Shown here: positions 3,862-26,543 of the stretch, piece by piece | Position numbering within the stretch: the stretch's first letter is position 1 | How the letters are laid out: each line of letters opens with the position of its first letter | DNA from: Flavobacteriaceae bacterium | GTDB lineage: Bacteria; Bacteroidota; Bacteroidia; Flavobacteriales; Flavobacteriaceae | Direction of reading: 5' to 3' | Assembly (NCBI GenBank): GCA_965224465.1 | Contig: OZ245049.1 | Location: 510,001-542,000, forward strand | Length of the DNA stretch: 32,000 nucleotides | Translations under genes and position numbers: made by a program | Notes under the pieces: generated by a model | Databases searched by the model: none | Told to the model about the DNA's origin: nothing | Seen by the model: the letters and a program-made list of their open reading frames with translations, nothing else

Positions 3862-3978
3862 TGTACTCTTACTCGTTTTTTTTGGGGAAAAATAAAAGAG
3901 CAAGACAACTTTACACAAACAAAAGATGCTGTACACTCAAACTTTTAATCCCGAAAGTTTTATAAAAAATGTTTGCTT

Positions 3979-4120
3979 ATAGGCAGGTCTTCTGACTTAC
4001 TCTACTTTTAACGTCTTCCCATCTTTTACGACAGTGACAAAGGTGTTAAAAGCTTTTTTTTAGAGCTTACAGCTGCGGGTACAGTTTCCGAATTACACGA
4101 AATTCCCATTTTAATCCTAT
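3979..4120 (-). promoter_or_regulatory. Cobalamin (B12) riboswitch aptamer
   Basis: Read on the minus strand: P1 ATAGG...CCTAT, AATGGGAA, GTGTAATTCGGAAACTGTACCCGCAGCTGTAAG, GTCACTG, GGGAAGAC, and the B12 box AGTCAGAAGACCTGCC (plus-strand 3982-3997). It lies about 120 nt upstream of the receptor start. Confidence 0.85.
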
Positions 4121-4272
4121 TCTTAAATACTAAAAATAGAAACCAATAGCAGGGCAAATGTATATGAATAAATCATATTGAACTAAGAAAATATTAACTT
4201 TTTAATAGCATGACAATCAATGCTATAGCTATGTAAAATGATAAAAATCAGGAAACAAAAAATAGATAAAGA

Positions 4273-4800: not shown

Positions 4801-5726
4801 TGGTATGCAAAAAACAAAATAATAAATACAAACAACGTACTTCCAGCATAGTTTATCCATGCCACATCATTTATTTCATCATCTAACAAATCTCTATTAT
4901 TTTTTCCTATAACAGGTTTGTCAACCAAAGTTCCTCCGTATAAGTTAGGTCCACCAAACTGACAATTCAATACATACGCCAAAGCAGCTTCTGGATAACC
5001 AGCATTTGGACTGCTGTGCTTTTTCCCTTCTGTAAACACAAAAGCAATTCCCTTTATTTTTCCTTTGACAATCAGAATTAAAATAGCCGTAATTCTCGCG
5101 GGGATATAATTCACTACATCATCCAAAATAGCAGCAAATTTACCAAATTGCTCATAGCGTTCGTTTTTATAGCCAATCATAGAATCAAAGGTATTGATCA
5201 TTTTATAAGCCATTATCCCTGGCACTCCAAAACAAGCCAAAAAGAACAAGGGAGCAATTACCCCATCGCTTAAATTCTCCGACATGGTTTCAAAAGTTGC
5301 TTTTTTTATTTGTTGTTCATTTAATGCAGAAGTATCCCTCCCCACAATCCATGACAAACGCATTCTTCCTGCTTCAATTCCATGATGACTTAATTCGTAA
5401 ATGACAGCCTTTCCTTCTTTTACCAAGGTTTTATTTGCCAAACAATAAAACACAGCAATCGTAGAAAGAATAATCTCATCAATCAACCAAGATTCACTTC
5501 TCAAATAAATGCGTATCCCGTAGGGTATTGCAATACTCAGACTAACCAAAAAGATACTTAGAAACATTCCTTTTGCAAATCGATATTTTCCCTTATTTAA
5601 TAGTTGTTCGCCCTTTCCGATCAAATTGCCATACGCTACAATTAAATGTGGAAGCCACTTGGGATCTCCCAAAAGTAAATCCAGTAAAAAACCACCGAGT
5701 AGGATGTATAAAAAAGTTAATTCCAT
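4794..5726 (-). CDS. cbiB: Adenosylcobinamide-phosphate synthase (CbiB/CobD family)
   Basis: 310-aa polytopic membrane protein. The N-terminus LLLGDPKWLPHLIVAYG and the motifs MSENLSDGVIAPLFF and NAGYPEAALA are typical of CbiB. It sits within a cob gene cluster. Confidence 0.85.
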   Translation of the reverse strand: MELTFLYILLGGFLLDLLLGDPKWLPHLIVAYGNLIGKGEQLLNKGKYRFAKGMFLSIFLVSLSIAIPYGIRIYLRSESWLIDEIILSTIAVFYCLANKTLVKEGKAVIYELSHHGIEAGRMRLSWIVGRDTSALNEQQIKKATFETMSENLSDGVIAPLFFLACFGVPGIMAYKMINTFDSMIGYKNERYEQFGKFAAILDDVVNYIPARITAILILIVKGKIKGIAFVFTEGKKHSSPNAGYPEAALAYVLNCQFGGPNLYGGTLVDKPVIGKNNRDLLDDEINDVAWINYAGSTLFVFIILFFAYQW

Positions 5727-6730
5727 GTTTGCAATGCTTTTATTAAGGCCTTATTTGCCTCAAAGTTTTGTAATGAAACACGAATATGCGCTCCTTTAAG
5801 TCCCGTAAAATTAGTTGCATCCCGTACCAAAATTCCATGGGTGTTGGCCAAGTAATTTTTTAATTCTGTAGCCGTTCCTTTTGCTATTTTTAATAAAAAA
5901 TACGTGGTTTCACCGGCAACTACCTCAAAACCTTTGATACTGTTTAATTGTTTTTTAAATTCTTGTGTTTCTCTTAATAACACATTCACATCAAAACTTA
6001 ATTCGCTGTAATTCTCAAAAATATACCTTCCCGAAGCAATTGCCAAACTATTTACTGTCCACGGTAATTTATAGTTTAATAACTCCCCTATAAAATCTGT
6101 ATTTGACACAATATAGCCCAAACGCAAACCAGGAATAGCAAACGTTTTGGTGAGTGAACGTACAATTGCTACATTTTTATACTCCGCCACCAAAGACATT
6201 GCCGAGCCAACAGCATTGGAAAATTCATTATACGCCTCATCAATGACAAAAAATGTAGCTGGATATTTTTTAAAAAGATGTTCAAGAGTCTCCACAGACA
6301 TCACTTTACCATCTGGATTGTTGGGATTACATATAAAAACCAATGCAGCATTTATATCCTGTTCAAACAATGCCTCTCTTGTGATACATTCAAAAGCTAC
6401 CTGATGCATCTTACATGCATCTTCATATTCTGCAAAAGTAGGTGCAACAATCAAGGCTTTTTTATCTCTATAACATTGAGCAATCAAGTAAAAAATTTCT
6501 GTAGCACCATTCCCAAATAGAAATTCAGAGGCATTTAAATTAAATTGTTTTGCTGCCAATACATTCAATTCCCCTGCCACTGGCGATGGATAATTTTGAA
6601 TCAGATGTACCTTGTTTTTTAGATACTCCAACAATGCAGCATCGCAACCTTTATAGTACACATTTGAACTAAAATTATAGCGTATTGTTCCTTCAAAATT
6701 ATGAAGATCATCTCCATGTCCATCAATCAT
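5717..6730 (-). CDS. cobD: PLP-dependent threonine-phosphate decarboxylase (class I/II aminotransferase fold, CobD/CobC type)
   Basis: 337 aa. It has an aminotransferase-like layout, NPNNPDG, and a PLP-lysine context SLTKTFAIPGLRLGY. It is located between cobQ and cbiB. Confidence 0.75.
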   Translation of the reverse strand: MIDGHGDDLHNFEGTIRYNFSSNVYYKGCDAALLEYLKNKVHLIQNYPSPVAGELNVLAAKQFNLNASEFLFGNGATEIFYLIAQCYRDKKALIVAPTFAEYEDACKMHQVAFECITREALFEQDINAALVFICNPNNPDGKVMSVETLEHLFKKYPATFFVIDEAYNEFSNAVGSAMSLVAEYKNVAIVRSLTKTFAIPGLRLGYIVSNTDFIGELLNYKLPWTVNSLAIASGRYIFENYSELSFDVNVLLRETQEFKKQLNSIKGFEVVAGETTYFLLKIAKGTATELKNYLANTHGILVRDATNFTGLKGAHIRVSLQNFEANKALIKALQTWN

Positions 6731-6739
6731 ACCTTCCTC

Positions 6740-8182
6740 CTATTTAGTGTACATTTTATCAAGATCCAAACAGCTTCTCAATAAATCCGCTAATTTGTCA
6801 AAATTTTCGTTTTTAAAGTATTCATAAGACTGCATCTCATTTGTAGATATACTTCCTAACAAATCATCTATCACCACTTTGTTGTCAAAAATCCCATGCA
6901 TATAGGTTCCCCAACAATCATCATTTAACATATATCCTTCTTCTCCTTCTGCTAAGGTATTTAACCTTGCCGATACTTCTGAGCTAGAAACACCCATGTG
7001 TATTTCATACCCCGTACAGGTTTCTGAATAATCTTTAAATTTAAAATTCCGTTGAATGGTTGTTTTTTTATCAGACAATATCGTTTTCATAGGGATAATT
7101 CCTAATCCAGGTACGGTACCAATAGCTCCTTCTACCCCATAAGGGTCGCTTATTTCTTTTCCCATCATCTGATATCCACCACAAATTCCAATCACTTTTT
7201 TATTGTTTTCAAAAGCATTTAAAATGGCGTTTGCAATTCCTTTTTTACGCAGAAAATGCAAATCAGAAATGGTGTTTTTAGTGCCTGGTATCAGTACAAT
7301 ATCCGCTTGTTCTATTTCGCTTGGATCTTTAGAATAATACAAATGTACGCGTGGATCACGTTCCAATAAATTAAAGTCTGTATAATTGGACATGTATGGC
7401 AGTAAGACAACAACGATATTAATTTTACCAGAAAGACTCGTGATTTTCTTTTGCTGTAAAGCCACAGAATCTTCGTCTTCTATATAAATATCCGATGCAT
7501 AAGGCACCACTCCAATAACAGGCAAACCTGTTAGTTCTTCTATCTTTTTTCGCCCATCATCAAACAGCGTAATATCACCTCTAAACTTATTAATTATAAT
7601 ACCTTTCATCAAGGCGCGTTCCCATGGTTCTAACAAGGCAATAGATCCATAAACACTTGCAAACACACCTCCTTTATCAATATCTGCGATAAGATAAACA
7701 TCGGCTTTGGCAAATTTTGCCATGCGCATATTAACTATATCTCTGTGTTTTAGATTGAGCTCAGAAATACTTCCTGCGCCTTCCAATACAATAGGATGGT
7801 ACATTTTAGACAGGGATAAAAATGCTTTTTGCGCCTCTTTAAAAAGGTTTTCTTTGTCATTTCCTAAAAAATAATCTTTTGCAGATTGATTTCCTACGGG
7901 TTTTCCATGGAGTACTATCTGAGATGATTTGTCCGAAGTTGGTTTTAACAACACTGGATTCATCGCTGTAATGCACGGTATGCCACAAGCATCAGCTTGT
8001 ACGGCCTGAGCCCTTCCTATTTCCAATCCTTCTGGAGTTACGAAACTATTGAGTGACATGTTTTGGGCTTTAAATGGAGCGGGATGAAACCCGTCTTGTT
8101 TTAAAATCCTACACATCCCCGCAGCTATGATGCTCTTTCCTACATCAGAACCCGTTCCTACAAACATTATGGGGCTTTTCAT
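6740..8182 (-). CDS. cobQ: Cobyric acid synthase
   Basis: 480 aa. The N-terminus is GTGSDVGKS (CobQ/CbiP P-loop). The C-terminal glutaminase domain has GICGGYQMMG and a later H in YEIHMG. Confidence 0.9.
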   Translation of the reverse strand: MKSPIMFVGTGSDVGKSIIAAGMCRILKQDGFHPAPFKAQNMSLNSFVTPEGLEIGRAQAVQADACGIPCITAMNPVLLKPTSDKSSQIVLHGKPVGNQSAKDYFLGNDKENLFKEAQKAFLSLSKMYHPIVLEGAGSISELNLKHRDIVNMRMAKFAKADVYLIADIDKGGVFASVYGSIALLEPWERALMKGIIINKFRGDITLFDDGRKKIEELTGLPVIGVVPYASDIYIEDEDSVALQQKKITSLSGKINIVVVLLPYMSNYTDFNLLERDPRVHLYYSKDPSEIEQADIVLIPGTKNTISDLHFLRKKGIANAILNAFENNKKVIGICGGYQMMGKEISDPYGVEGAIGTVPGLGIIPMKTILSDKKTTIQRNFKFKDYSETCTGYEIHMGVSSSEVSARLNTLAEGEEGYMLNDDCWGTYMHGIFDNKVVIDDLLGSISTNEMQSYEYFKNENFDKLADLLRSCLDLDKMYTK

Positions 8183-8363
8183 TTGTTCTGTTTAAAATAA
8201 TAAGCAGCAAATATACAAATAGCATCCCTAAATAAACTGACAAATAGCACTGTTTTATAGCCGTATTTAAAGCTCTTTAAAATAACAGCCGTATTTTGAT
8301 TGCATCTGCCTCTAGATTACATAATATTTACAGGGAACAATGTGTTTATTTTAGGTTCTATTT

Positions 8364-8543
8364 AAAGAAATTTACACCAAGACCATCAAAATTAACAGTA
8401 AAAAAATCGTTGAACCGCTTAAAATTTAAAAAATTTGAATACTTTTAACGATAAAACAACACATACCCCGAAAGTATTATAGACATAACGGAAATAACGT
8501 CAAGTTTTGGAAGTTTATTGATGATATGTGGGGGTTGTAAAAC
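8364..8543 (+). repeat. Recombinase-3'-end/junction repeat, copy A (leftmost edge of the cassette array)
   Basis: It encodes a relic ...KEIYTKTIKINSKKIVEPLKI* that is homologous to the last codons of the 13973-15109 recombinase, including the catalytic Tyr codon at 8373-8375. About 100 nt homologous to 15070-15170 follow, ending in GTTGTAAAAC (8534-8543). Confidence 0.8.
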
Positions 8544-8573
8544 ATTTGAAAAGAATCAAATACCATAAAAAAA

Positions 8574-9749
8574 ATGGCTTATATTCAAATTAAAGGTTAC
8601 CCTAATACAAAAATAAAAATTAAACTTCCTAAAGTTATCAAGAAGGCTGAAATATTAGAAGCTTATTGGTCAGATGAAAAAGGAATTAAAATCAATGTTT
8701 TAGACTATAACAAGAAAGCCTATATAAGGATAAAAAGTAAAAATATATTTAAAAAAATTATAACATTACGTGTATATGAAAGCGATATCGGACCTATGAA
8801 TGATGATTTCATATGGGAAGATGAATTATCTCTTAAAAATAATGATGCAATTTTATCCTTTAATTTAACTCCAAATATGTTTGTTAAAGGAGAAGAGGAT
8901 CTGGTAAACTTCTATTTTACTTTACAAATAGAAGATCAAGATGAAAAAGAATTTAATAATAATAAAAAAGAGTATTTAAAGGTTCATTTAGTACGCTATG
9001 TTCCTGGAGTATTAAAAGCTTTAGGGTGGAATAAAGGGGCAGAACTACAAGAAGAATGGTTTAGTAGACAAGCAAGTAGCAACCCTGACTCTAACAATCC
9101 TAATTTATCTATCATAACGATGAATTGGATATTAGGATTTACAAGTGCTAAAACATTGCTTAGCTCTATGATTACTCAGAAAATTTGGGTAAATACAGCA
9201 GGAAAAAGAGCCTTGCTATCAGAAATTAAACGCATGATTAAAGATAATGAAGTGACCATCCCGATTAATGAAGGTAGTTCTTCTAGTTTTGGGGTATTTA
9301 ACAATACTATAATTAATTACAAAAATAAAAGGATTCCAAAATTTGATAAATACCACTATCAAGAACGTGCATTTGCTCCTGGATCTTTTAGCACATTGGA
9401 TGATCTCACTGCTGCCTTGGCTAATTTCGTTTTCAGAATGTCTTCTGGAGGAACGATAACCAAAAACAAAGACAATTATACTATTCAAATAATTAAAGTT
9501 GCCACTTATGTAAGAGACTCCTTTGACTTTATTGATCCAGGATGGGCTAGTCAAAATTTAGGCTACTGGAACATACAGGAAAATAAAGTAGTTAAATTTT
9601 CTTTGGGTTCTGGATATAGATTAATTGAAAATTCTAGTTATCAAAATTACAGGAGTGAATTTCAGATGGGAGGAGATTTTCGTTTATATAGCGATATTCA
9701 CTATACAAATACTAATGATACTTTTGACGTACCTTTAACTACTTTCTAA
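8574..9749 (+). CDS. Polymorphic-toxin-like protein, variant 1 (C-terminal domain of unknown function)
   Basis: 391 aa. The first 22 aa, MAYIQIKGYPNTKIKIKLPKVI, are shared with the 15197 ORF (MAWIEIKGYPETRMKIEFPKVV), after which the two proteins diverge completely. A small membrane-protein gene follows 3 nt later. Confidence 0.5.
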   Translation: MAYIQIKGYPNTKIKIKLPKVIKKAEILEAYWSDEKGIKINVLDYNKKAYIRIKSKNIFKKIITLRVYESDIGPMNDDFIWEDELSLKNNDAILSFNLTPNMFVKGEEDLVNFYFTLQIEDQDEKEFNNNKKEYLKVHLVRYVPGVLKALGWNKGAELQEEWFSRQASSNPDSNNPNLSIITMNWILGFTSAKTLLSSMITQKIWVNTAGKRALLSEIKRMIKDNEVTIPINEGSSSSFGVFNNTIINYKNKRIPKFDKYHYQERAFAPGSFSTLDDLTAALANFVFRMSSGGTITKNKDNYTIQIIKVATYVRDSFDFIDPGWASQNLGYWNIQENKVVKFSLGSGYRLIENSSYQNYRSEFQMGGDFRLYSDIHYTNTNDTFDVPLTTF

Positions 9750-9752
9750 AAA

Positions 9753-10106
9753 ATGAAAAAAATGATATATATATTATTCTCGATATTAGTTATTTCTTTA
9801 ACAGCATACTTATTCTTTTTTAGAAAGGAAAGTAAAACATATACGAGTCCAGATGGTTATTATTCATTAATTATAAAAAAGAAGTCTAACCTTTTTAAAA
9901 CGACCTCTCCTGGTGATGGTGGAAATTATGAAGTTGAAATAGTGTTAAAAAACAAAAGAGGTAATATTATTGGAGAAAGTAATAGTAATCTAAACTGTAG
10001 AGTATTCAATGACAGCATAGAGATTGAATGGGATATTAAAAATGATCAAGTTAAGTATAGTAGAGGAAAGACCATTAATCTTAAAACGGGTAAAGTAGAA
10101 TGTTGA
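9753..10106 (+). CDS. Small N-terminally anchored or secreted protein, candidate cognate immunity protein
   Basis: 117 aa with an N-terminal hydrophobic helix, MKKMIYILFSILVISLTAYLFFF. It is tightly linked downstream of the toxin-like ORF. Confidence 0.45.
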   Translation: MKKMIYILFSILVISLTAYLFFFRKESKTYTSPDGYYSLIIKKKSNLFKTTSPGDGGNYEVEIVLKNKRGNIIGESNSNLNCRVFNDSIEIEWDIKNDQVKYSRGKTINLKTGKVEC

Positions 10107-10121
10107 TGAAAATTATTTTTC

Positions 10122-10345
10122 AATTGAATAGACGGCTCCAACTAAAATAGCTATCAGTCACCTTTCGCACTACCATAGATACGAAAACTTCGCTCGGTAA
10201 TTTCTAATTATAAGTATAAAAACACTTCTAATTCTCATGAACCTATACGACGGTTCAAAAAATTGAAGTTTGTGTATTATTAATGGTTTGTATCCTTTTC
10301 GTACAAGTCTAGATTTGGGTTTGGTAGTTTTTAAAATTGAATTTT
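10122..10345 (-). pseudogene. Relic of the 3' end of a related group IIC intron (domains V/VI plus the last ~25 RT codons)
   Basis: attgaatagacgg... matches atcgagtagacgg... at the intact introns. atacgacggttcaaaaaattgaag matches their domain V/RT-stop region. The tracked ORF 10170-10370 carries SRLVRKGYKPLI, the RT C-terminus. It is truncated upstream. Confidence 0.7.
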
Positions 10346-10354
10346 TTCTTATTA

Positions 10355-10555
10355 AGCCATGCTTCTCCAAAAACCACAGAGATATACACCAAGACCATCA
10401 AAATTAACAGTAAAAAAATCGTTGGACCGCTTGAAAATTTAAAAAATTTGAATACTTTTAACGATAAAAACAAATAATCACTCATTCTACTCTAGCTATG
10501 TTAGAAATAACAGCTACTCTAAGAGTTCTATAGTAGATATACGGGTGTTAGGCAC
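10355..10555 (+). repeat. Recombinase-3'-end/junction repeat, copy B (recombinase pseudogene fragment plus junction)
   Basis: The in-frame relic HASPKTTEIYTKTIKINSKKIVGPLENLKNLNTFNDKNK* (10358-10477) is homologous to the recombinase C-terminus. The unit ends atatacgggtGTTAGGCAC (10547-10555). Confidence 0.8.
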
Positions 10556-10568
10556 AATAACCAAATTT

Positions 10569-11237
10569 ATGATAAAAATCACATGTACTGAAGCACCAAT
10601 ATTTGCTCAAATTGTTAATAGAAATTTCGTGAATATTACCAGAGTTTCAAGATTATTAGATGATTTTACTAAAAGTTTAAATCAAGATATTTTGAGACTT
10701 TGCGTTGTATATTTACATGCCTCATCAGAAGATTTGTTAAGAAATGTTTATTTTTATCACATCACTAATTCCGACCATTCAAATTTATTAGGTAAGATTC
10801 CTCTATTTGAATCAGACGGAAAAAAAGAAAAGTTTAATTTTCAAGATCTTAAATACTTTAAAAATTACACGATTGAAGAAATAATGAATAAATCTTGTGA
10901 AGAATATGCAAATCGACTAACGTTTAATAATACAAATGATATCATTTCTGTTTTCAACAAATTTAATGTAAGTACTGAAAAAATAAAACATTTACTACCT
11001 CAAGTTCAAGAAATTTTTTTGAGAAGACATTTAATTGTACATAACTTAGATATGAATACTAATCGTTTTCATTTAAGTAAAGAAGAATCAATAAGACACG
11101 ATGGGAAAATTGAAACAAAAGATAACTTAAACAAAGCAATTATTGAGAATTGGATAAATATAATGAGTCAATTTATGCTAAAAACTGCAATTAGTTTTTT
11201 ACCTAAAGGCACATCAATTACGATGAATAATATTTAA
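10569..11237 (+). CDS. HEPN-like (RiboL-PSP/Abi-type) protein, tentative
   Basis: The tracked ORF starts at a GTG inside the junction motif; the first ATG is at 10569. The only recognisable motif is an Rx4H-type box, FLRRHLIVHN, in the C-terminal third. It is otherwise unassignable by eye. Confidence 0.35.
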   Translation: MIKITCTEAPIFAQIVNRNFVNITRVSRLLDDFTKSLNQDILRLCVVYLHASSEDLLRNVYFYHITNSDHSNLLGKIPLFESDGKKEKFNFQDLKYFKNYTIEEIMNKSCEEYANRLTFNNTNDIISVFNKFNVSTEKIKHLLPQVQEIFLRRHLIVHNLDMNTNRFHLSKEESIRHDGKIETKDNLNKAIIENWINIMSQFMLKTAISFLPKGTSITMNNI

Positions 11238-11341
11238 TAAACATAGTACAGTTCAAACAAAGCATAAAAAGAATAAGGCTTAAGTTTCAATTAAAAAATT
11301 TATTTGATGATTAAAAGAAATATAATAGTATTAGATTCTTA

Positions 11342-12460
11342 AATTCAAGTAGTAAATGCAACTTCTTAGATTTGAGAGTTTCTAAGGTTTATTTTTCAAA
11401 ACAGAAAGAGAGTCACCTCTCCTTCATGTTTTGATGGAATAGTTACCTTACGCCCTCAAGTCTCTGAAAAAGAAGTAGTATGGCACATTTAACCAAAGAA
11501 CAAAGATACACAATTACCTGTATGTTATCACAGGGGTATTCTAAGTCCAAAATAGCCTTGGCTATAGGGAAACATAAAAGCACTATAAGTAGAGAATGCA
11601 AACGTAATTGCGATGCTCGTAGCGGCTCCTATGAATACGAATTAGCACATAGAAAGTGGAAGGATAGACATAAGAAAAAGCGAAAGCACATTAGGTTTAC
11701 TGAGAAGATAAGAAGCGAGGTTGAAAAGCTGTTACGTGATGATTATAGTCCAGAACAAGTGGTTGGAATACTTACTAAGCAAGGAAAAGAAGTTGTTTCA
11801 GTAGAACGTATTTATCAGCATATCTGGCAAGATAAGAAGCATAAAGGCACACTCTATACTCATTTAAGAAGACAAGGAAGGAAGTACAGGAAACGAGGGG
11901 CATTCAAGGACTCACGTGGTATTATTAAAGATCGAATTAGTATTGAAAAACGACCAGATATAGTGGAGAAAAGAGAACGTTTTGGAGATTTAGAAGTGGA
12001 TTTAATAATTGGAAAAAATCATCATCAAGCCATTCTTACAATCAATGACAGGGCTTCTGGGATGCTAAAGATGAAAAAAATAGCATCTAAAGAATCTTCT
12101 GTTGTAACAGCTGCTATTAATGAGCTTTTAGAAGATTGGATACCGTATATAAACACTATAACAGCTGATAACGGAAAAGAGTTTGCAGGACATAAAAAAG
12201 TAGCTGAATTTTTAGGAATCGATTATTATTTTGCACATCCTTACCATTCATGGGAAAGAGGATCTAATGAAAATTTAAATGGGCTTATTCGGCAATATTT
12301 CCCTAAAGGAAGTGACTTTTCGATATTAACTAAGCAGATGATAAAACAGGTGGAAGGAAAATTAAATAGAAGGCCTAGGAAAAGGTTTTCATATCAAAAC
12401 CCTATATTTGTAATGAATCAATTATTGTTTAACCAAAAAGTTGCGTTTATAAGTTGAATT
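11342..12460 (+). mobile_element. IS30-family insertion sequence (~1.12 kb)
   Basis: Imperfect terminal inverted repeats: AATTCAAgTagTAAAtGCAACTTcTT at 11342-11367, and the reverse complement of 12435-12460 (AATTCAAcTtaTAAAcGCAACTTtTT). The transposase stop lies inside the right repeat. No clear target duplication was seen. Confidence 0.6.
11480..12457 (+). CDS. IS30-family transposase
   Basis: 325 aa. It has an N-terminal HTH (LTKEQRYTITCMLSQGYSKSKIA...STISRECKRN) and a DDE core (GDLEVDLI, ITADNGKEF, WERGSNENLNGLIRQYFPKG). Confidence 0.9.
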   Translation: MAHLTKEQRYTITCMLSQGYSKSKIALAIGKHKSTISRECKRNCDARSGSYEYELAHRKWKDRHKKKRKHIRFTEKIRSEVEKLLRDDYSPEQVVGILTKQGKEVVSVERIYQHIWQDKKHKGTLYTHLRRQGRKYRKRGAFKDSRGIIKDRISIEKRPDIVEKRERFGDLEVDLIIGKNHHQAILTINDRASGMLKMKKIASKESSVVTAAINELLEDWIPYINTITADNGKEFAGHKKVAEFLGIDYYFAHPYHSWERGSNENLNGLIRQYFPKGSDFSILTKQMIKQVEGKLNRRPRKRFSYQNPIFVMNQLLFNQKVAFIS

Positions 12461-12570
12461 CAGCATTAAATATAAGAAATCATTCATAATTAGTAAATTA
12501 TTTAAATCGTTACGGTAAAATAAACTAACAAAAAACCATAACAGATTTATAACTATAATGAAAATTAAAA

Positions 12571-12851
12571 GTGCCTAATAACTAAGTGTTCGTGCGGTGC
12601 ATAGCGCCCAGCATGAACATAATGTTGACTATACCGGCCCAAAAGATGATACTATGGGGATTGCGCGAAGTTTATTAAGAAGCTATCGACAAGGACCTTA
12701 ATAAGATACTACCTGTTTTAGTGCATTTACTCCCACGCTCTTTTGTGGGGATAGTTTTTTACTGTTTTTTGATACTGATTATTGTTGGTTAGTAGCGTTT
12801 AGGCATGCGTTTTCCATTACGTGGCTACGTTTGTTTATTTTCGGTTATTAG
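12571..12851 (+). other. Atypical long attC-like site / non-coding spacer closing the HEPN-IS30 cassette
   Basis: It starts GTGCCTAAtAAC, the near reverse complement of the cassette start GTTAGGCAC. It ends ggCTACGTTTgtttattttcgGTTATTAG (12844-12851). That end resembles the ...CTACGTTT...ccGTT right ends of two of the three long sites, and it is the exact complement of CTAATAAC at 12575-12582. No ORF is present. Confidence 0.4.
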
Positions 12852-12936
12852 TACATGCTTTTATTGGTTGCAACCAATAGGCAGGAGGTCCTCTTCCGCT
12901 AAACAGATAGACGGTTTTGAGTTTTACTGTCTTACA

Positions 12937-13012
12937 ATCGTTCTGTTTTTCAACAATGCTAGTACGTAAACCAACCTGTTTATATCGGTCATTTCAGATA
13001 GTAGTTGGTATT
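12937..13012 (+). repeat. 76-nt direct repeat, copy 1
   Basis: atcgttctgtttttcaacaatgctagtacgtaaaccaacctgtttatatcgg...ttggtat. It is about 85% identical to 13690-13765. Confidence 0.8.
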
Positions 13013-13463
13013 ATATTCGCACTCTGATTATTATTATTTCCTGATCTGTAAATTCCATCCAAGCAAAATCATATAAATAACGATAGGTTTTACCTTGGGA
13101 ATTTATATATGAATGGGTACTGTATTTAAAATTGAATTTTTTCTTATCTAAGCGTAAACGAGTTATTTTTTTTTGGCTTAGATTCTTCCCCATCACTTCC
13201 AACAATATAGATCGATTCCTATGTAAAATACGATCAATATCTGTACACATGTCTTTGGTAACACGCCGCAGATTTGTATGGTAATAATTCTTACATTTGA
13301 TGGAACAAAATATTTTATTAGTCCTACCTACAATTTCTGTTGAACAAATTTTACAGGTTTTCATAGCTTCATAATTATTTAAATTTAAAAAAAACGATCT
13401 CGTTGCCATTTTATAAGGAGTGTTTCTAAACCCACCAATGGGTTTAATCCCCGATGCTTGCAT
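13011..13463 (-). CDS. Zinc-ribbon protein of unknown function (part of the recombinase module)
   Basis: It has a CxxC...CxxxC ribbon, MKTCKICSTEIVGRTNKIFCSIKCKNYYH. The likely true start is Met34 (13364) or Met19. Confidence 0.55.
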   Translation of the reverse strand: MQASGIKPIGGFRNTPYKMATRSFFLNLNNYEAMKTCKICSTEIVGRTNKIFCSIKCKNYYHTNLRRVTKDMCTDIDRILHRNRSILLEVMGKNLSQKKITRLRLDKKKFNFKYSTHSYINSQGKTYRYLYDFAWMEFTDQEIIIIRVRI

Positions 13464-13689
13464 CGAAATGATTAAGGTTTTTTTTCATGCCTCATGGGTT
13501 TACCCCAAGGTTATTGACTTATTTCTAGTGATTAATTACAATTAAATACTCCTAAATTATCTTGAAAACAACAAAACAGTTCTATAACACTAATTAAATC
13601 TCCTTTGACGGTTTAGAAATGGAATTATTTTTTATTTGTTCTCCGACTGAGCGGATAGCTAGACAAAAAACGAATGGATATCCTTAGCT

Positions 13690-13765
13690 ATCGTTCTGTT
13701 TTTTTAACAAGGCAAGAACGTAAACCAACCTGTTTATATCGATTATTTTGGATTTTAATTGGTAT
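13690..13765 (+). repeat. 76-nt direct repeat, copy 2
   Basis: atcgttctgtttttttaacaaggcaagaacgtaaaccaacctgtttatatcga...ttggtat. The sequence after it weakly resembles the 3' end of the zinc-ribbon ORF. Confidence 0.8.
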
Positions 13766-13972
13766 AACACCTAGCTCTTAAAATTATGTGGATCCGTGAA
13801 ACCCCAGTAATTTTATTGTCTTGAACAAAAAAGATATTTGTTTTAACTTCTTGTATTCATGAAAGTTACGACTTTAAACGTTTTTAACGGTTAAAACGTT
13901 TAACTATTTTTTTCCTAGCGATAATTTGCTCAAATAGCGTATCTTATAGCAATAAAGAAACAATGCCTACTT

Positions 13973-15109
13973 ATGAAAAGGACAGAAATTTACATACCCG
14001 TAAAAAATGCGAAACGTATAAAAGTAAGTATTCCGTATCATAGGACAGTCCTAAGACAAAAAATTAAAGAGATAAACAGTTCCTTTTGGCATCCCAATCA
14101 AAAATTATGGTCGGTTATAAATACCGAAGAAAATTTTGAACTGTTAAAATCCATTTGTGGAAAAGACACGTTGCTTAGCGCGGAAAAGTCCCCCACTCCA
14201 CTACCCGAAGTAATTTTAAATCAGAGACAGATAGAAGCGCTATTAAACTTAGAAAAAACACTGGTGTTAAAACGCTATGGTTTATCGACCATACGCATGT
14301 ATAAAAGAATGTTTAGTTTATTTTTAATGAAATTTTCCAGTAGAGATTTGGTACAAATCACTAAACAAGAAATAGAGTCCTTTATATATGAGTTGATTAA
14401 AAAAAACGGTATTTCGGAGAGCATGCAAAACCAAATTATTAATGCCATTAAAGCCTATTATGAACATGTTTTAAAAAAACCAAGAGAATTTTACGATATA
14501 GAACGTCCCAAAAAAACGATAAACATACCAAATGTGTTAAGTGAAGAGGAAGTAGTAGCATTACTTAACAGTCCTAAAAACCTGAAACATAAGGCTATAT
14601 TATGGACAATATATAGTGCTGGCCTACGAATAAGCGAAGTATTAAATTTAAGAATTGCAGATATAAATTCGGACGACGGCTATCTTTTTATAAAAAACAG
14701 CAAAGGAAATAGAGACCGAAAAACAATCTTATCTCCTCGTTTACTCCCTTTATTAAGAAGTTATTATAAAAAATACCGTCCCTCCTATTGGTTATTTGAA
14801 GGACAAACTGGCGGAAAATATACCCAAAGTAGTATTCGTAGTTTTTTTAGACGTGCCGTAGAAGAATCCAACATAAACCCCTGGGCAACAGTACACACCT
14901 TAAGGCATTCATTTGCTACACATTGCATCATAAACCAAGTAAGTATGCGTCATGTACAGAATATGCTAGGCCATGCCTCTCCTAAAACAACCGAGATTTA
15001 CACCAAAACAATTGAAATAAATAACAAAAAAATTAAAGGACCGCTTGAAAACTTAAAAAATTTGAATACATTTAACAAAAAAACAACACACAACCCGAAA
15101 CTATTATAG
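13973..15109 (+). CDS. Tyrosine site-specific recombinase (XerC/D-like catalytic spacing with an ~80-aa N-terminal extension)
   Basis: Catalytic signature: AGLRISE (Arg), HTLRHSFATH (His-x-x-Arg), LGHASPKTTEIYT (His...Tyr). It has a SAM-like core-binding region, ESMQNQIINAIKAYYEHVL. Only about 88 aa separate box I Arg from box II His, so the extra IntI-specific insertion appears to be absent. Confidence 0.9.
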   Translation: MKRTEIYIPVKNAKRIKVSIPYHRTVLRQKIKEINSSFWHPNQKLWSVINTEENFELLKSICGKDTLLSAEKSPTPLPEVILNQRQIEALLNLEKTLVLKRYGLSTIRMYKRMFSLFLMKFSSRDLVQITKQEIESFIYELIKKNGISESMQNQIINAIKAYYEHVLKKPREFYDIERPKKTINIPNVLSEEEVVALLNSPKNLKHKAILWTIYSAGLRISEVLNLRIADINSDDGYLFIKNSKGNRDRKTILSPRLLPLLRSYYKKYRPSYWLFEGQTGGKYTQSSIRSFFRRAVEESNINPWATVHTLRHSFATHCIINQVSMRHVQNMLGHASPKTTEIYTKTIEINNKKIKGPLENLKNLNTFNKKTTHNPKLL

Positions 15110-15170
15110 AGATAACGGAAATAACGTCAAGTTTTGGAAGTTTATTGATGATATACGGGTGTTACAAAAC
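14984..15170 (+). repeat. Recombinase-3'-end/junction repeat, copy C (the functional copy)
   Basis: It covers the last ~40 codons of the recombinase plus 60 nt, ending atatacgggtGTTACAAAAC (15161-15170). It is homologous to 8364-8543 and 10355-10555. Confidence 0.85.
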
Positions 15171-15196
15171 ATTAAAACCAATTAAAACCCTAAAAA

Positions 15197-16384
15197 ATGG
15201 CTTGGATTGAAATAAAAGGTTATCCTGAAACAAGAATGAAAATTGAATTTCCTAAAGTAGTAGCTATTGATGCAATAGAATGTATTACAGATTTAGAAGA
15301 TGGTTCTGACAATCTAGGCACAAATAGTACACAGAAAGGAATGATTTACGGGAAAGAATATGAATTCAAAGTTTCTAAGTATTATAAAAATAATACACCT
15401 ACTGATGAAATGATTAAAGAGATTATTTGGGAATACTCTTATGCAAATGATGAAGGGGGTGTAACAATAACAACTCAAAAAGAATCTTCTGGAGAAAGTT
15501 TTAAATTGAAAATTGATAACCTTGAAATATTAGGTAAAAAAATATCAATTTATGCTTATTTAGGATGTAAGCAAAGTGAAGGCAATTTAGATATCTTTTG
15601 CCATAATCGGTTTAGATATTTTGACAAGGAGATAATAAAAAATGAACTAAATAAGAGGAAAAATAATCCTGAATTAGCAAATCAAAGTATGACTCCTACT
15701 TGCGGAATGGCTTCAATATTTTATATATTAGCTAAAGAAGATTTTGATAACTATCAAAACTTTATACTTGATTTACATCAAACTGGGATTGCTAAATGTA
15801 ATTCATATGAAGTTGATGTTTCTAAATGTGAGCATTTATTAGAAATGGATCCTGTTATAGATAATTTATACCCCGTGTTATATGGTAAAAAAATGCCATA
15901 TATTGATTGGATTCCTTTTTCTTGCGTTAGAGACTTAGAAAATAATTTACCCATAAGTTATAATGGCAAAATGAGCCAATCTTCATTAGATGAATTTTCA
16001 GGAGCTACATTGCCTCACGAAATAGAAAAATTAATGAAAGAGGTTTTAGGTTTCAATAAAATTATAAACGACACAAATCTCGTTTTCAATAAAGATAGCC
16101 AAGCTTTTGGCGAAATATCCGCCAGAGAATTAAAGAAATTACAAGATTTATATTTAGATGGATATAATATATGCTTATTTATTAATACAAATATGATAAG
16201 TAATAAGAAATCTGGAATTTTATCGACAATTGAACATTGGGTCGTATTCGAGGGAATTATTGGAGGAACAATTAGTTGGGATGAATATGATTTCAAAGTC
16301 TTTACTTGGGGTCGTATCGAGAAAATCATTATAAACCCAGAGTCATTCAGATCAAATTATTATGGATATGTTGCAGGTAAATAA
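15197..16384 (+). CDS. Polymorphic-toxin-like protein, variant 2, with a papain/C39-like Cys-His peptidase (or amidase) fold
   Basis: 395 aa. It shares the N-terminal 22 aa with the 8574 ORF. The candidate catalytic set is NQSMTPTCGMASIFYIL (Gln, five intervening residues, then Cys-Gly) and TIEHWVVFEG (His). A lipoprotein gene follows. Confidence 0.5.
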   Translation: MAWIEIKGYPETRMKIEFPKVVAIDAIECITDLEDGSDNLGTNSTQKGMIYGKEYEFKVSKYYKNNTPTDEMIKEIIWEYSYANDEGGVTITTQKESSGESFKLKIDNLEILGKKISIYAYLGCKQSEGNLDIFCHNRFRYFDKEIIKNELNKRKNNPELANQSMTPTCGMASIFYILAKEDFDNYQNFILDLHQTGIAKCNSYEVDVSKCEHLLEMDPVIDNLYPVLYGKKMPYIDWIPFSCVRDLENNLPISYNGKMSQSSLDEFSGATLPHEIEKLMKEVLGFNKIINDTNLVFNKDSQAFGEISARELKKLQDLYLDGYNICLFINTNMISNKKSGILSTIEHWVVFEGIIGGTISWDEYDFKVFTWGRIEKIIINPESFRSNYYGYVAGK

Positions 16385-16781
16385 AAAACTTATTTATTTC
16401 TTTTTAATCATACTACTTTCGAGTTGTAAAGAGAAAGTTAAACAATGTAGTTTGGAAAATTCTATATTTAGTAGAATTACTTTAAAAGAGTTTAAAAACT
16501 TAAGAAGTCTAAGCGTAAATGGAAAAAAAAGAAATAATCTTTTAAAGGTAAATTCTAATGGAGTCTATATAAAAATAGATTCTGAAATATACGATGAATT
16601 AAGAAAAGATAAGGTTTTGTTTGTAATTAATGATTCTTTGAACTATATCATTTCAGAAATTAGAATAGATTCTGTAGAAAGGCAAACTATGGTAAATAGA
16701 ATTAATGATTGTTTTTTGGTATCATATAAAGTTAATGACTCAATAATTTATCATCATCAAGAGATTATTATAAATCACTAA
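16362..16781 (+). CDS. Small lipoprotein, candidate periplasm-facing immunity protein
   Basis: It has a signal peptide with a lipobox, KKLIYFFLIILLSSC. It overlaps the toxin-like ORF by 23 nt (or 17 nt from Met3). Its stop lies 3 nt before the cassette-end motif. Confidence 0.5.
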   Translation: MDMLQVNKKLIYFFLIILLSSCKEKVKQCSLENSIFSRITLKEFKNLRSLSVNGKKRNNLLKVNSNGVYIKIDSEIYDELRKDKVLFVINDSLNYIISEIRIDSVERQTMVNRINDCFLVSYKVNDSIIYHHQEIIINH

Positions 16782-16792
16782 AACGTTTTGTA

Positions 16793-18648
16793 ATCGAGTA
16801 GACGGGTGACAACTGAATAGTTGCCACTGCGCCTCTCACACCACCGTACGTACGGGTCTCGTATACGGCGGTTCAAAAAATTGAAGTCTGCGTATTATTA
16901 ATGTAATCTATCAAAGGTTTATACCCTTTTCGTACAAGTCTAGATTTGGTAATGGTAGTCTTTAAAATTGGACTTTGGGCTACTGCCCATCCTCCCATTC
17001 TGGTTCTACTCCAAGCGTATGCTTGTCCATTCTCTATTCCTAATCTGATTAGGTTTTTACGTTTTCGTTCGAGTTTTTTCCAATCGTGCCAAATACAATA
17101 TCGCAACCGATTTCTTATCCACTCATCTAGCTTTTTAACTTTTGCATAGATGTTGGTTAAACGGTAATTATTCATCCAGCCTCGGCAGACTTGATTAAGC
17201 CGTTCTAAACGTTCCGACAATGACATTGGTTTGGTTTTCTTGGTAATACTCTTTAGGTTACGCTTAAACTTTGCCCAACTTTTCTTTGCTACTACTAGTA
17301 TATATTGTCCTTTTACTCCCTTTTTGTAGACTGGCACAAAGCCATGTCCTAGTAACTCAAAGTTTACGGGTCTACGAATGCCACTTTTGGCTTTATTTAT
17401 AGGTAGTTTTAATTTGTCTTTTAAGAAGACAAACAACGTATTCCCTATTTGTTTCGCCTCACGTTTGGTCTTTGCGTAAATGCTAAAATCATCTGCGTAG
17501 CGGACGTACCGTAAACCCATTCTTTTCATTTCTTTATCCAAGACGTCTAACATTATGTTAGATAGTAAGGGACTAATTGGGCTTCCTTGCGGGATTCCTT
17601 TTCTACGCTTTTGAAGTTTCCCATTTATTAAAATAGGAACTCTAAGCCATTTTCGGATTAAACGCATGGTTGTTGGACATTTTACCCTGTGGTAAATAAG
17701 TTGTAGTAGGATACAATGGTCCACTTCATCAAAGAACCCTTTAAGGTCAATATCTACAATATCTTGGTAACCATTATTGATATACTGTTGAGCTTGTAGT
17801 ACTGCTTTTTGAATGTTCTTTTGTGGTCTAAACCCAAAACTAAGTGGCTCAAAATCAAATTCGAACTGAACCATTAATTGTTGGCTTACCGCTTGCTGTA
17901 GCCATCTATCTACTACTGTTGGGATTCCTAAAAGTCTGGTTTTACCCTTGCCTTTTGGAATGCTTACTCCTAAGATTGAGTTTGGAACATAGCTATTCTT
18001 ACGGATCGTTGTTAGTATGTCTGAACGGTTTTCAACTATATAAGTTGAAAGTTCCGTTACTTTCATACCATCAACTCCGCTAGCTCCTTTATTTCGCTTC
18101 ACTTGACGTGCTGCTTTAAAAAGGTTGGTAGCTTCTAGTACTTTGTCAATCATAGGTTAAATAATTCGGGTACTCCTGTTGGTTTAAAACTAGGCTAGCT
18201 AGGCATCCTAATTGAATTTCAACGTAATTTAATGTTCTGTCCTTCCCTATTTGTGAGACCATCTGAGGTCTTTCCTCAACTCGTTTCCCATAGGTACTAT
18301 GACGTCTGCTGACTTCTCCATAGAACCAACTCCTGGCTTTGGAGACCTCCCCAGGTAATGACATCTTCTTTCACTCAATCACTGCCGTATCTACATAACT
18401 ACCCTTTTAGTATTCTTTTGGGCGTTGCAATGATGTGTTTACTTACCCAAGTAATTATACCTCTGTATACGGTTTCTGTTCGTCAGTACCGAGCTTTGTA
18501 GTCTCGCTTCCTTCAGATAAAACCTCACGGTTTTCACCCTTGCGACTTACTAATGTTTCAGAACGTTACTCCTGCACATAAGGGACTTGCACCCTCTAGA
18601 TTAATTAACTACCTTTCCGTAGTTAAAAGATGCCCATGCTGGGCACAC
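16793..18648 (-). mobile_element. Group II intron, bacterial class C (IIC), copy 1; intact, 1856 nt
   Basis: Read on the minus strand: 5' GTGTGCCCAGCATGGG, AGGGTGCAAGTCCC, CTGAAGGAAGCGAGAC, CCTGGGGAGGTCTCC, GAAGTCAGCAGACGTCATAGTACC. Domain V is GAACCGCCGTATACGAGACCCGTACGTACGGTGGTGTG, followed by a short domain VI ending ...CTACTCGAT. As I recall it, this closely parallels the Oceanobacillus iheyensis IIC ribozyme. The ends are uncertain by about 2 nt. Confidence 0.9.
16873..18153 (-). CDS. Group II intron reverse transcriptase/maturase (no endonuclease domain)
   Basis: 426 aa. RT blocks: GVDGM, RLLGIPTVVDRWLQQA, FGFRPQKN, DIDLKGFFD, GIPQGSPISPLLSN, YVRYADDFSIY. It has an X/maturase tail. The stop abuts domain V. 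Confidence 0.95.
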   Translation of the reverse strand: MIDKVLEATNLFKAARQVKRNKGASGVDGMKVTELSTYIVENRSDILTTIRKNSYVPNSILGVSIPKGKGKTRLLGIPTVVDRWLQQAVSQQLMVQFEFDFEPLSFGFRPQKNIQKAVLQAQQYINNGYQDIVDIDLKGFFDEVDHCILLQLIYHRVKCPTTMRLIRKWLRVPILINGKLQKRRKGIPQGSPISPLLSNIMLDVLDKEMKRMGLRYVRYADDFSIYAKTKREAKQIGNTLFVFLKDKLKLPINKAKSGIRRPVNFELLGHGFVPVYKKGVKGQYILVVAKKSWAKFKRNLKSITKKTKPMSLSERLERLNQVCRGWMNNYRLTNIYAKVKKLDEWIRNRLRYCIWHDWKKLERKRKNLIRLGIENGQAYAWSRTRMGGWAVAQSPILKTTITKSRLVRKGYKPLIDYINNTQTSIF

Positions 18649-18840
18649 ACAAAGTATATAAAACATAGCTAATAAGTGCTTAACCCAAAGGTCAGTGCTT
18701 ATTTACTAAGTTCCGCCAAATTTTTAATTTGGCTTTTAAAATAGAAAAGATAAAAACAAAATATAAAAATCTGGCTCTGTGCTAAACCCGAAATTTATCG
18801 TATTTTCATACGCTACGTTTCATATACAAACCGTTAGGTG
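18649..18840 (+). other. Long attC-like site (right part; the left 9 nt are at 16784-16792, split off by intron 1)
   Basis: The reconstituted left end is GTTTTGTA|AC-AAAGTATA. It has three GTGCTWA boxes, the first two 19 nt apart. The central hairpin is GCCAAATTTTTA (18715) paired with TAAAAATCTGGC (18775). The right end is TATACaaaccGTTAGGTG (18833-18840). Confidence 0.65.
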
Positions 18841-18866
18841 CAAGCTGAAAAAAAAATCCCACCGCA

Positions 18867-18917
18867 CGTTCAAGCACATTTTATTTTGCTCGTGCCTCAC
18901 AAAATAAAAAGAGCTTG
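18867..18917. repeat. Hairpin element with conserved loop CTCGTGCCTCA, copy 1 (5' leader of the 4-gene cassette)
   Basis: caagcacattttattttg - ctcgtgcctca - caaaataaaaagagcttg, with 16 of 18 stem positions paired. A second copy with compensatory stem changes is at 23758-23813. Confidence 0.6.
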
Positions 18918-19026
18918 CCCTTTCCCACCACCACCACTCAAACGAAAACAAGAATAAAACTCACAACTTTTTGAGATAAAATGAAAAAATAACTTACTTT
19001 AGTGGCTGAATAAATTACATCTAAAA

Positions 19027-19221
19027 ATGAATCGGATAAAAGAAGTTTTGGAAGAAAAAGGCATTAAACAAATTTGGCTTGCTGAGAAATTGGGGAAAAG
19101 CTATAATATGGTAAATGCTTATGTACAAAACAGACAACAACCAAGATTAGAAATTTTATTCAAGATTGCGGAAATACTGGATATTTCTGTAAAAGATTTA
19201 ATTATTGAAGCTAAAAAATAA
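19027..19221 (+). CDS. XRE-family helix-turn-helix regulator
   Basis: 64 aa. The HTH is IKQIWLAEKLGKSYNMVNAYVQNRQQP. It has a paralogue at 31196 that also heads a cassette. Confidence 0.85.
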   Translation: MNRIKEVLEEKGIKQIWLAEKLGKSYNMVNAYVQNRQQPRLEILFKIAEILDISVKDLIIEAKK

Positions 19222-19222
19222 A

Positions 19223-21190: not shown

Positions 21191-21194
21191 AATT

Positions 21195-23749: not shown

Positions 23750-23757
23750 AAAGCCAA

Positions 23758-26531: not shown

Positions 26532-26543
26532 AGCCAGTTGCCA

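Follow-up and report, generated by a model that had tools for sequence, protein, structure and literature searches.

Two putative toxin/immunity pairs with a common 22-residue N-terminal tag, carried as cassettes in an integron-like array of a Flavobacteriaceae bacterium

Why should two genes of one genome begin with the same 22 codons and then encode proteins of unrelated sequence? The question is raised by a stretch of 32,000 nucleotides (nt) from a Flavobacteriaceae bacterium (GenBank assembly GCA_965224465.1, contig OZ245049.1, positions 510,001 to 542,000 of the forward strand), called the window throughout, in which a first-pass annotation made from the letters had noticed two toxin-like open reading frames (ORFs), here T1 and T2, each followed by the gene of a small exported protein, here I1 and I2. 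On balance we think it likely that T1/I1 and T2/I2 are effector/immunity pairs of the Bacteroidota type VI secretion system (T6SS) that are borne on cassettes, and that the common N-terminal segment, the tag, is an exchangeable handle for non-covalent loading. The genes and tags are the following (aa, amino acids).

8574 to 9749, plus strand: T1, 391 aa, N-terminus MAYIQIKGYPNTKIKIKLPKVI
8574 to 8639, plus strand: tag of T1, 22 codons, from the ORF translation and alignment; a beta-hairpin in the structure model
9753 to 10106, plus strand: I1, 117 aa, with an N-terminal transmembrane anchor; a homologue lies in a VgrG operon of Aquimarina sp. RZ0
15197 to 16384, plus strand: T2, 395 aa, N-terminus MAWIEIKGYPETRMKIEFPKVV
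15197 to 15262, plus strand: tag of T2, 22 codons, from the ORF translation and alignment; a beta-hairpin in the structure model
16362 to 16781, plus strand: I2, 139 aa, a lipoprotein with the lipobox LLSSC; overlaps the T2 stop by 23 nt

The shared N-terminus reported by the first-pass annotation is real. Fourteen of the 22 tag residues are identical between T1 and T2, as are 79% of the 66 nt that encode them, and the motif MAxIxIKGYP, searched as a degenerate DNA pattern, matches the window exactly twice, with 0.00 matches expected from shuffles. The accompanying claim that the proteins are unrelated past about residue 25 stands for the sequence, as the 300 nt after the tag are 52% identical, which is background for AT-rich DNA, and a profile-profile comparison of the two families with hhalign gives a probability of 0.6%; detectable sequence homology past the tag was rejected on this figure. 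The claim does not stand for the fold, as the models of both proteins contain a beta-sandwich at approximately residues 24-138. In both AlphaFold models the tag is an amphipathic, Lys/Glu-rich hairpin whose strands are residues 2-5 and 13-16.

What follows the tag in T1 is a beta-sandwich (about aa 26-138) and then a DUF6402 toxin domain (aa 141-382; Pfam PF19940, E 1.5e-34), and the AlphaFold model of the whole protein has a mean predicted local distance difference test score (pLDDT) of 89.0. Homologues of T1 mostly have a PAAR-like DUF4280 domain at the N-terminus, and one is an Rhs fusion (Rhs repeats). The closest, P0051 of Aquimarina sp. RZ0, is 74% identical to T1 and lies in a locus (L030) with the order VgrG, 262-aa gene, DUF4280-DUF6402 effector, 120-aa gene. 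The product of the 120-aa gene is a clear homologue of I1, and we regard I1 as the candidate cognate immunity protein of T1. The best Foldseek matches of the T1 sandwich are to BtaeB of Bacteroides fragilis (9jg8_C, E 6e-5; 9jdh, E 8e-5), with a root-mean-square deviation of 3.3 over 133 columns for 9jdh; 9jg8_C is BtaeB within the BtpeA-BtaeB-BtapC cargo complex on VgrG. The Aquimarina sp. RZ0 VgrG operon (L030, 5027-7249) also encodes a 740-aa M23 peptidase effector candidate with an internal 'ILEAYW', the motif that opens the N-terminal sandwich of T1, which suggests that the T1-type sandwich may be a common building block of Flavobacteriaceae T6SS effectors. Our partial coverage of the literature turned up no paper mentioning DUF6402.

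In T2 the tag is followed by a beta-sandwich (about aa 24-135) and then by a domain with a papain-like Gln163/Cys169/His347 arrangement; the protein has no Pfam match, and its AlphaFold model has a pLDDT of 88.5. Q163, C169 and H347 are invariant in the 37 sequences of the T2 family and G170 is nearly so. The spacing of six from Gln to Cys in this family is the same as in papain. Weak Foldseek matches to Lpg2622, the calpain core and staphopain (E about 0.02-0.04) point the same way, and together these results bear out the Gln...Cys-Gly/His idea of the first-pass annotation; the toxin domain of T2 fits a predicted papain-like (clan CA) cysteine hydrolase. The match of T2 to 9jdh (BtaeB; Foldseek E 0.02, probability 0.98) is weaker than that of T1. 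Homologues of T2 are found fused to DUF4280 (P0005, P0025, P0031) or to TssD, the Hcp protein (P0006, P0029, P0045), and the T2 orthologue P0002 (L001) adjoins a VgrG operon. A homologous gene of 139-141 aa follows every T2 homologue examined, including P0002 and P0003, and I2 is accordingly named here as the candidate immunity protein for T2. The pairing of each toxin with a small exported protein was rightly described from the start, I1 having a transmembrane segment and I2 a lipobox.

The tag is not confined to these two genes. A tag profile was searched against 1.84 billion representatives and found five further true members besides T1 and T2, given below; P0079, P0082 and P0085 from the same search were set aside as tandem-repeat false positives, and a 40-column tag profile returned only P0083.

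P0078, in a cassette with the same leader as T2: body a Tae4 amidase (PF14113, E 2.8e-22 once two frames are joined)
P0080, in a cassette with the T2 leader and inverse core: body a 242-aa protein with an HExxH motif, with a 185-aa partner
P0081, starting 1 nt beyond a tssD stop codon (L028): body of 241 aa, of unknown kind
P0084: body of 221 aa, of unknown kind; a look-up of its genomic context returned nothing
P0083, in the source genome outside the window: 54 aa, apparently the start of a polysaccharide deacetylase; tag MATVIIKGYPNTKTTIKLPKV; a context look-up returned nothing here either

The tag consequently heads at least seven kinds of body, namely DUF6402, papain-like, Tae4, HExxH-containing, polysaccharide-deacetylase-like and two unknown. 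Together with the DUF4280, TssD or Rhs N-termini found elsewhere in the T1 and T2 families, and with the toxin/immunity pairing that is kept there, this agrees with the polymorphic-toxin pattern suspected in the first-pass annotation. The tssD gene upstream of P0081 (PF17642, E 1.9e-21) encodes a protein with a C-terminal beta-sandwich extension.

The point at which the body begins is fixed. The T2-family body begins I-x-x-I-E-C-I-T-x-L-D-x-G-S and the T1-family body E-I-L-E-A-Y-W, and these starts stay constant whether the tag, DUF4280, TssD, a 50-70-aa 'MSRTRIVGG...' segment or a short hairpin-like peptide (such as MSIIKISLTNDPSKVWTFDCPLTL, MTKATFTVTVKSTGQQMS or MAGSKNEMTAIFESGKGNKLKIALPEVE) stands ahead of them. 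P0003 is 82% identical to T2 and has T2's leader (GTTACAAAACATTAAAAC...) and cassette ends, but carries a different hairpin tag, with only background identity (51%) in the tag region; the tag therefore varies independently of its frame. T1 and T2, conversely, belong to one genome and have a common tag on otherwise unrelated sequence. As the tag is common within a genome and differs on an orthologous body elsewhere, it seems to be matched to a partner of the host's own.

Three side observations concern these N-termini. The 'MSRTRIVGGK.T....G' module (about 50-70 aa) occurs in P0009, P0012, P0014, P0035, P0044 and P0046 of the T2 family and in P0068 of the T1 family; it has no Pfam annotation and may be another uncharacterised T6SS delivery module. 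In L028 (1359-2793) the C-terminal extension of TssD resembles, by eye, the first part of the T1-type sandwich with the last strands apparently missing, and the hairpin of the tagged 241-aa protein might complete this sandwich in trans. Also by eye, the tag resembles the hairpin that opens DUF4280 (MAGKYVINGAKIKCSL compared with MAYIQIKGYPNTKIKIKL), of which it may be a vestige; alternatively it may mimic the opening hairpin of Hcp.

What, then, could the tag be for? In T1 and T2 it sits where the closest homologues of both bodies hold a covalent carrier, either DUF4280 of the spike tip or TssD/Hcp of the tube, and neither T1 nor T2 has a DUF4280, TssD or VgrG carrier domain in Pfam. Linkage to tube or spike genes recurs among the relatives, with VgrG in L001 and L030 and tssD in L028. 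The first-pass annotation did not recognise the tag as a known delivery domain of the T6SS, of type IX secretion or of Rhs proteins, and it indeed has no match to any Pfam or NCBIfam model, yet the carriers of its relatives and its adjacency to tssD do connect it with the Bacteroidota T6SS. In the explanation that we prefer, the hairpin would dock the effector onto a part of the host's T6SS, be it a TssD paralogue, an adaptor like Ate3/BtapC or a PAAR-like protein, likely by beta-strand addition, and a toxin with the host's version of the tag would be fired without fusion to a structural protein. Once delivered, the toxins would act in the periplasm of the target cell, T2 as a papain-like cysteine hydrolase, and be neutralised there by I1, which is membrane-anchored, and by the lipoprotein I2; this site of action is probable because I1 and I2 are exported. 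A bolder version, in which the hairpin alone suffices as a portable, host-matched T6SS address label and forms, with the XerD-like array described below, a plug-in platform where pairs arrive labelled or are relabelled, is put forward tentatively, and we would sooner doubt it than rely on it.

The tag might instead address another export route, such as an extracellular contractile injection system, vesicles or type IX secretion. Contractile injection systems also have VgrG-like spikes and tube proteins, and load cargo by short N-terminal signals. The domains linked to the tag are however of T6SS type (DUF4280, TssD PF17642, Tae4). The tag lacks a hydrophobic core or lipobox in the ORF translations and is not a Sec signal, as the first-pass annotation had stated, and the Pfam scan found no Por_Secre_tail, the type IX sorting domain, in T1 or T2. 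We consider such a route highly improbable.

If the tag is a T6SS loading handle, it must still be asked why the DNA ahead of T1 and T2 is alike as well. Similar leaders had been noted previously, and they are indeed 68% identical, both opening with TTRYAAAACATT right after the G at 8534 or 15161 and then becoming A-rich, but the conserved block reaches about 195 nt further upstream than was recognised. Repeat finding and alignment place this block in three copies, A (8341-8534), B (10353-10547) and C (14967-15161), made up of the 3' end of a recombinase gene (its last 45-50 codons) and an attI-like site of about 50 nt that ends GATAT(A/G)(C/T)GGG(T/G)G. Copies A and C are 77% identical. Copy B departs from both exactly at G/TT (here and below, a slash within a junction of this kind marks the crossover point), whereas the likeness of A and C runs on through the leader and the 22 codons. 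The DNA upstream of T1 and T2 is alike because each cassette is inserted at the attI-like G/TT just 3' of a XerD-like recombinase gene. The parts of this platform are as follows.

8341 to 8534, plus strand: copy A, a decayed recombinase 3' end and attI-like site (families D6/D7); a 1-nt deletion breaks the frame; ends in the G of G/TT
8535 to 8573, plus strand: leader of cassette A; starts TTGTAAAACATT, then A-rich to the ATG
10112 to 10123, plus strand: inverse-core-like end of cassette A, ATTATTTTTCAA, found by eye; imperfect, partly complementary to the cassette start
10122 to 10345, minus strand: what is left of the 3' part of a group II intron, joined to recombinase remnant B (families D8/D9, sequence, blastn)
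10353 to 10547, plus strand: copy B, a recombinase 3' remnant and attI-like site, with 96.5% identity to the sister-strain remnant; then a cassette starting TTAGGCAC
13973 to 15109, plus strand: intact XerD/XerA-like tyrosine recombinase, 378 aa (Pfam Phage_integrase, Phage_int_SAM_4), co-directional with the cassettes
15110 to 15161, plus strand: attI-like site of copy C; ends GATATACGGGTG; identical in the sister-strain contig L021
15162 to 15196, plus strand: leader of cassette C; starts TTACAAAACATTAAAAC; also ahead of P0002, P0003, P0078 and P0080
16782 to 16793, plus strand: inverse core of cassette C, AACGTTTTGTAA, complementary to the cassette start TTACAAAACATT
16794 to 18649, minus strand: group II intron with a reverse transcriptase/maturase gene (Rfam RF02001, RF01998; RVT_1, GIIM), inside the attC-like site of cassette C; ends uncertain by about 2 nt
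18650 to 18833, plus strand: rest of the attC-like repeat of about 190 nt; ends CCG, the next cassette starting TTAGGTG; alignment A6

With NCBIfam the recombinase scores 188 bits against XerA and 180 bits against the integron integrase (TIGR02249, 180.2 bits with a cut-off of 265), both below the cut-offs, and against PRK15417 it scores 128.8 with a cut-off of 435. Downstream of it the genes are co-directional and the units start after G/TT; in four cassettes the inverse core is complementary to the cassette's own start:

T2/I2 cassette: start TTACAAAAC, end GTTTTGTAA
TPR/MazG/Schlafen-type helicase cassette: start TTAGGTG, end CACCTAA
CYTH cassette: start TTGGCAAC, end GTTGCCAA
Cassette of a 765-aa gene: start TTATGGGC, end GCCCATAAC

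Cassette A spans 8535 to about 10123, and cassette C comprises 15162-16793 plus its attC-like repeat. Between units stands the repeat of about 190 nt, ending CCG/TT, which also occurs in unrelated metagenome contigs; six copies from three sources were brought together in alignment A6. The idea that these attC-like repeats fold significantly better than shuffled DNA was rejected (z -1.4 and -0.5, not significant). GC content is 27-32% in most cassette-bearing 2-kb bins and 34-35% in the backbone. Three near-identical group II introns (D1-D5; about 16794-18649, 23862-25766 and 26545-28446, all on the minus strand) sit exactly at inverse cores (..AA/C), opposite to the direction of cassette transcription. 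A repeat of about 75 nt forms the unit spacer at 30963-31033, and the array runs past the end of the window.

This anatomy allows a reading in which the conserved DNA, and not the peptide, is what matters. The 5' leader with its 66 nt, and on the 3' side AACGTTTTGTAAC with the attC-like repeat, would be a homology patch or cassette frame that lets interiors swap, or else a mark of common descent, and the peptide would have no role. The T2, P0002, P0003 and P0080 cassettes do enclose different contents between a common start, TTACAAAAC, and a common inverse core, AACGTTTTGTAAC (AACGTTTTGTAAC itself follows P0003 and P0080, and the close variant AACGTTTTGAAAC follows P0002), the common ends being TTACAAAAC and GTTTTGTAAC, and between A and C identity is even over the platform (77%), leader (68%) and tag (79%) before it drops abruptly to background. 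P0003, however, keeps leader, ends and body with a different tag, and P0081 lies outside any cassette, having the tag without the frame and keeping the peptide across five synonymous codon changes. Among the six tags with DNA available, the ratio of nonsynonymous to synonymous change (pN/pS) is below 1 in 14 of the 15 pairs, mostly 0.2-0.6, and these substitution patterns point to selection on the tag peptide. Moreover, RecA-type recombination works poorly on about 100 nt of about 80% identity. The homology patch that the first-pass annotation had offered as its alternative is weakened in particular by P0003 and P0081, and we consider it quite unlikely.

Do the cassettes move? The sister-strain contig L021 indicates that they do. 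Its backbone is 99.2-99.7% identical to that of the window, its recombinase protein is identical, and its identical attI site is joined at G/TT straight to the CYTH cassette, whose sequence shows 100% identity with 25948-26544 of the window. L021 lacks the T2/I2 and TPR cassettes as well as the 8460-10377 segment with T1/I1. This comparison shows that cassettes move at G/TT and that both toxin/immunity pairs are strain-variable; T1/I1 and T2/I2 are mobile cassettes in an integron-like array. It was also the basis for rejecting the tag and leader as part of the recombinase platform or attI, as in L021 the CYTH cassette follows attI, and in L001 and L004 the leader follows an attC-like repeat.

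Several further differences between the strains were observed. Cassette order differs between the array of the window (13973-32000) and that of L021 (9937-21073), the recombinase being identical, and the single-gene CYTH cassette (25950-26544) is third in the window and first, at attI, in L021. The attC-like repeat after the CYTH cassette also differs, which could stem from recombination between identical intron copies. At 7255-7440, L021 has one recombinase remnant whose left half corresponds to copy A and whose right half corresponds to copy B; in the window, 8460-10377 lies between two direct repeats of this remnant and contains first part of a foreign attI (about 85% identity to the resident site), then T1/I1 and then the intron remnant. 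It looks as though homologous recombination had inserted or removed part of another, related platform here. The cassette after copy B (10548-12576, starting TTAGGCAC) has a 230-aa ORF with no family match and then an IS30-type transposase (11480-12457), and at this position L021 has a different cassette with a 359-aa ORF. In both strains a 66-nt direct repeat (83% identical; 12946-13765 in the window) just upstream of the recombinase encloses a 150-aa ORF (13011-13463, minus strand) with weak zinc-ribbon-like matches.

A second account starts from a resemblance to a defensive array of the rAID type. T1/I1 and T2/I2 would be disarmed or stored modules in which selection favours the immunity that I1 and I2 give against T6SS attacks by neighbours, while the carrier-less toxins lie idle and the tag would merely supply a start codon and a stable N-terminus; or else the pairs would be addiction modules that stabilise the array. 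The architecture agrees with it, with a XerD-like recombinase at the 5' end, co-directional genes, repeated intergenic elements and a lower GC content, as do the missing carrier domains of T1 and T2. Yet T1 and T2 are intact, and none of the residues that are invariant in their families is lost, Q163, C169 and H347 among them; the tag peptide is kept through synonymous change and on seven bodies, a tagged gene that belongs to no array shows translational coupling to tssD, and the literature describes rAID arrays as holding orphan immunity genes and not whole toxins. We regard this account as unlikely.

Loading of T6SS effectors by the tag remains the explanation that we favour, and the following observations weigh against it. 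No T6SS structural gene was found in the 32-kb window by Pfam and ORF scans, and two tagged genes elsewhere look decayed, P0078 being frameshifted and P0083 only 54 aa long; both points also speak for stored modules, and the decayed genes would fit a store that is not used. The confidence of the models in the tag hairpin is low (pLDDT 52-57 in T1, 62-68 in T2). T1 and T2, at about 45 kDa, would be bulky cargo for the inside of an Hcp ring. The exact tag motif gave five matches in a DNA scan of 185,579 species genomes, all by chance, and seven in a scan of Joint Genome Institute (JGI) metagenomes, among which only the P0002 contig is real, which makes the exact motif a rare one in both collections; all sightings of the tag to date come from a small set of marine Flavobacteriaceae-like sequences. 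Finally, because identity is even, at 68-79%, across platform, leader and tag, the likeness of A and C could reflect plain descent of one platform with its first cassette, the interior of which was later replaced.

The remaining contents of the window lie on either side of the two pairs. The array begins right after cobQ, a gene of a cobalamin salvage/biosynthesis operon (4273-8182, minus strand; CobD/CbiB, aminotransferase, CobQ), and a cobalamin riboswitch (3965-4162, minus strand) lies between this operon and the gene of a TonB-dependent receptor. The cassette at 18834-23861 encodes a small XRE-type helix-turn-helix (HTH) protein (about 19029-19220), a TPR protein of 661 aa, a MazG-like pyrophosphatase and, in one protein of 741 aa, GIY-YIG, Schlafen-type helicase and S24 peptidase domains. 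PADLOC gave only weak partial matches for it (PDC-S14, AbiO), and for this reason 'defence cassettes' is only a suggestion. A second, similar HTH gene opens the next cassette, at about 31197.

What would follow from these readings can be stated separately. If the platform reading is true, the window and its sister strain give a first base-level view of cassette gain of the rAID type, with the crossover at G/TT and a recombinase that is not IntI. As the near-identical strains differ by whole cassettes at the G/TT of the same attI, the recombination reaction can be tested directly. Should the hairpin indeed serve in loading, no T6SS effector address yet known would be shorter, and the Bacteroidota system would have its first one; the tag would then provide a handle for finding effectors in marine Flavobacteriia, a way to load foreign proteins onto the T6SS, and a testable rule of effector-carrier specificity, in which genome-mates share a tag and orthologues elsewhere have another hairpin. 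If the rival accounts are right, the locus is still a clear case of toxin/immunity modules stored and shuffled by an integron-like element outside Proteobacteria. Our literature coverage, again partial, contained no paper describing the tag or a rAID-like array in Flavobacteriia.

Among the closest known systems are the adaptor-dependent T6SS effectors of B. fragilis, to which the Bte3/Ate3/Pte3 system belongs; it consists of an effector with N-terminal beta-sandwiches, an adaptor with an open beta-barrel and a DUF4280 tip protein (PMC13402684). The effectors BtaeB (Bfe7) and Bte3, the adaptors BtapC/Ate3 and the PAAR-like proteins BtpeA/Pte3, with structures PDB 9jdh and 9jg8, are from Li et al. 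2025 to the extent that this work is cited in PMC13402684. In our models T1 and T2 resemble the BtaeB/Bte3-type effectors of B. fragilis in having an N-terminal beta-sandwich ahead of the toxin, and also in their exported immunity proteins, in an effector that is not itself fused to the spike, and in a toxin action that is periplasmic, for T1 and T2 presumably so. They differ in that there is no detectable sequence similarity (PDB sequence searches with the T1 and T2 profiles, the N-terminal 150 aa of T1 and the VgrG-adjacent 292-aa protein gave nothing useful beyond the DUF4280 part), that no adaptor or PAAR-like gene adjoins T1 or T2, and that both lie in a recombinase-associated cassette array and not in a T6SS locus.

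The locus also resembles effectors with N-terminal markers or carriers (MIX, FIX, RIX; fusions to PAAR/DUF4280, Hcp or VgrG), where one N-terminal module is combined with many unrelated toxin domains and an immunity gene lies downstream, and within the T1 and T2 families the tag meets the body at the same point as a fused DUF4280 or TssD does. T1 and T2 are outside the class of carrier fusions because they have no DUF4280 or TssD domain. Their tag differs from the markers in being 22 residues long, a single hairpin and without a Pfam or NCBIfam model, and the relatives carry other short hairpins, for example MSIIKISLTNDPSKVWTFDCPLTL and MTKATFTVTVKSTGQQMS.

For the array, the comparison is with rAID-1, the Bacteroidales arrays of orphan immunity genes with a 5' XerD-like recombinase and intergenic elements 'reminiscent of integrons' (Ross et al. 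2019, bioRxiv 10.1101/471110; PMC12247911). Both have a XerD-like recombinase at the 5' end, co-directional genes, repeated intergenic elements, a GC content lower than that of the backbone and T6SS-related content. The rAID-1 type is defined by a 5' XerD-like recombinase more than 44% identical to BF9343_RS08045, with two or more co-directional genes after it. In contrast to rAID-1, the host here is of Flavobacteriia type and not of Bacteroidales, probably an Aquimarina-like marine member of the Flavobacteriaceae to judge by the nearest named homologues, and the array is not limited to orphan immunity genes but carries full effector and immunity pairs and also cassettes that have nothing to do with T6SS (TPR/MazG/Schlafen-type helicase, CYTH). 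With integrons, above all the sedentary chromosomal ones with conserved attC repeats, it shares a G/TT crossover at an attI-like site, an inverse core complementary to the first bases of the cassette, a repeat of about 190 nt ending CCG/TT and a strain-variable order. Here, however, the recombinase scores 180 bits with a cut-off of 265 and is co-directional with the cassettes, attI is at its 3' end, and the attC-like repeat folds no better than shuffled sequence. The group II introns, found at the inverse core in opposite orientation, are like the IIC-attC introns. Lastly, orphan toxin/immunity modules of contact-dependent inhibition (CDI) or Rhs systems likewise have no large delivery domain and a short conserved 5' segment; the segment described here differs from theirs in that it is not a piece of a delivery domain, brings its own start codon, shows conservation at the peptide level and turns up beside tssD.

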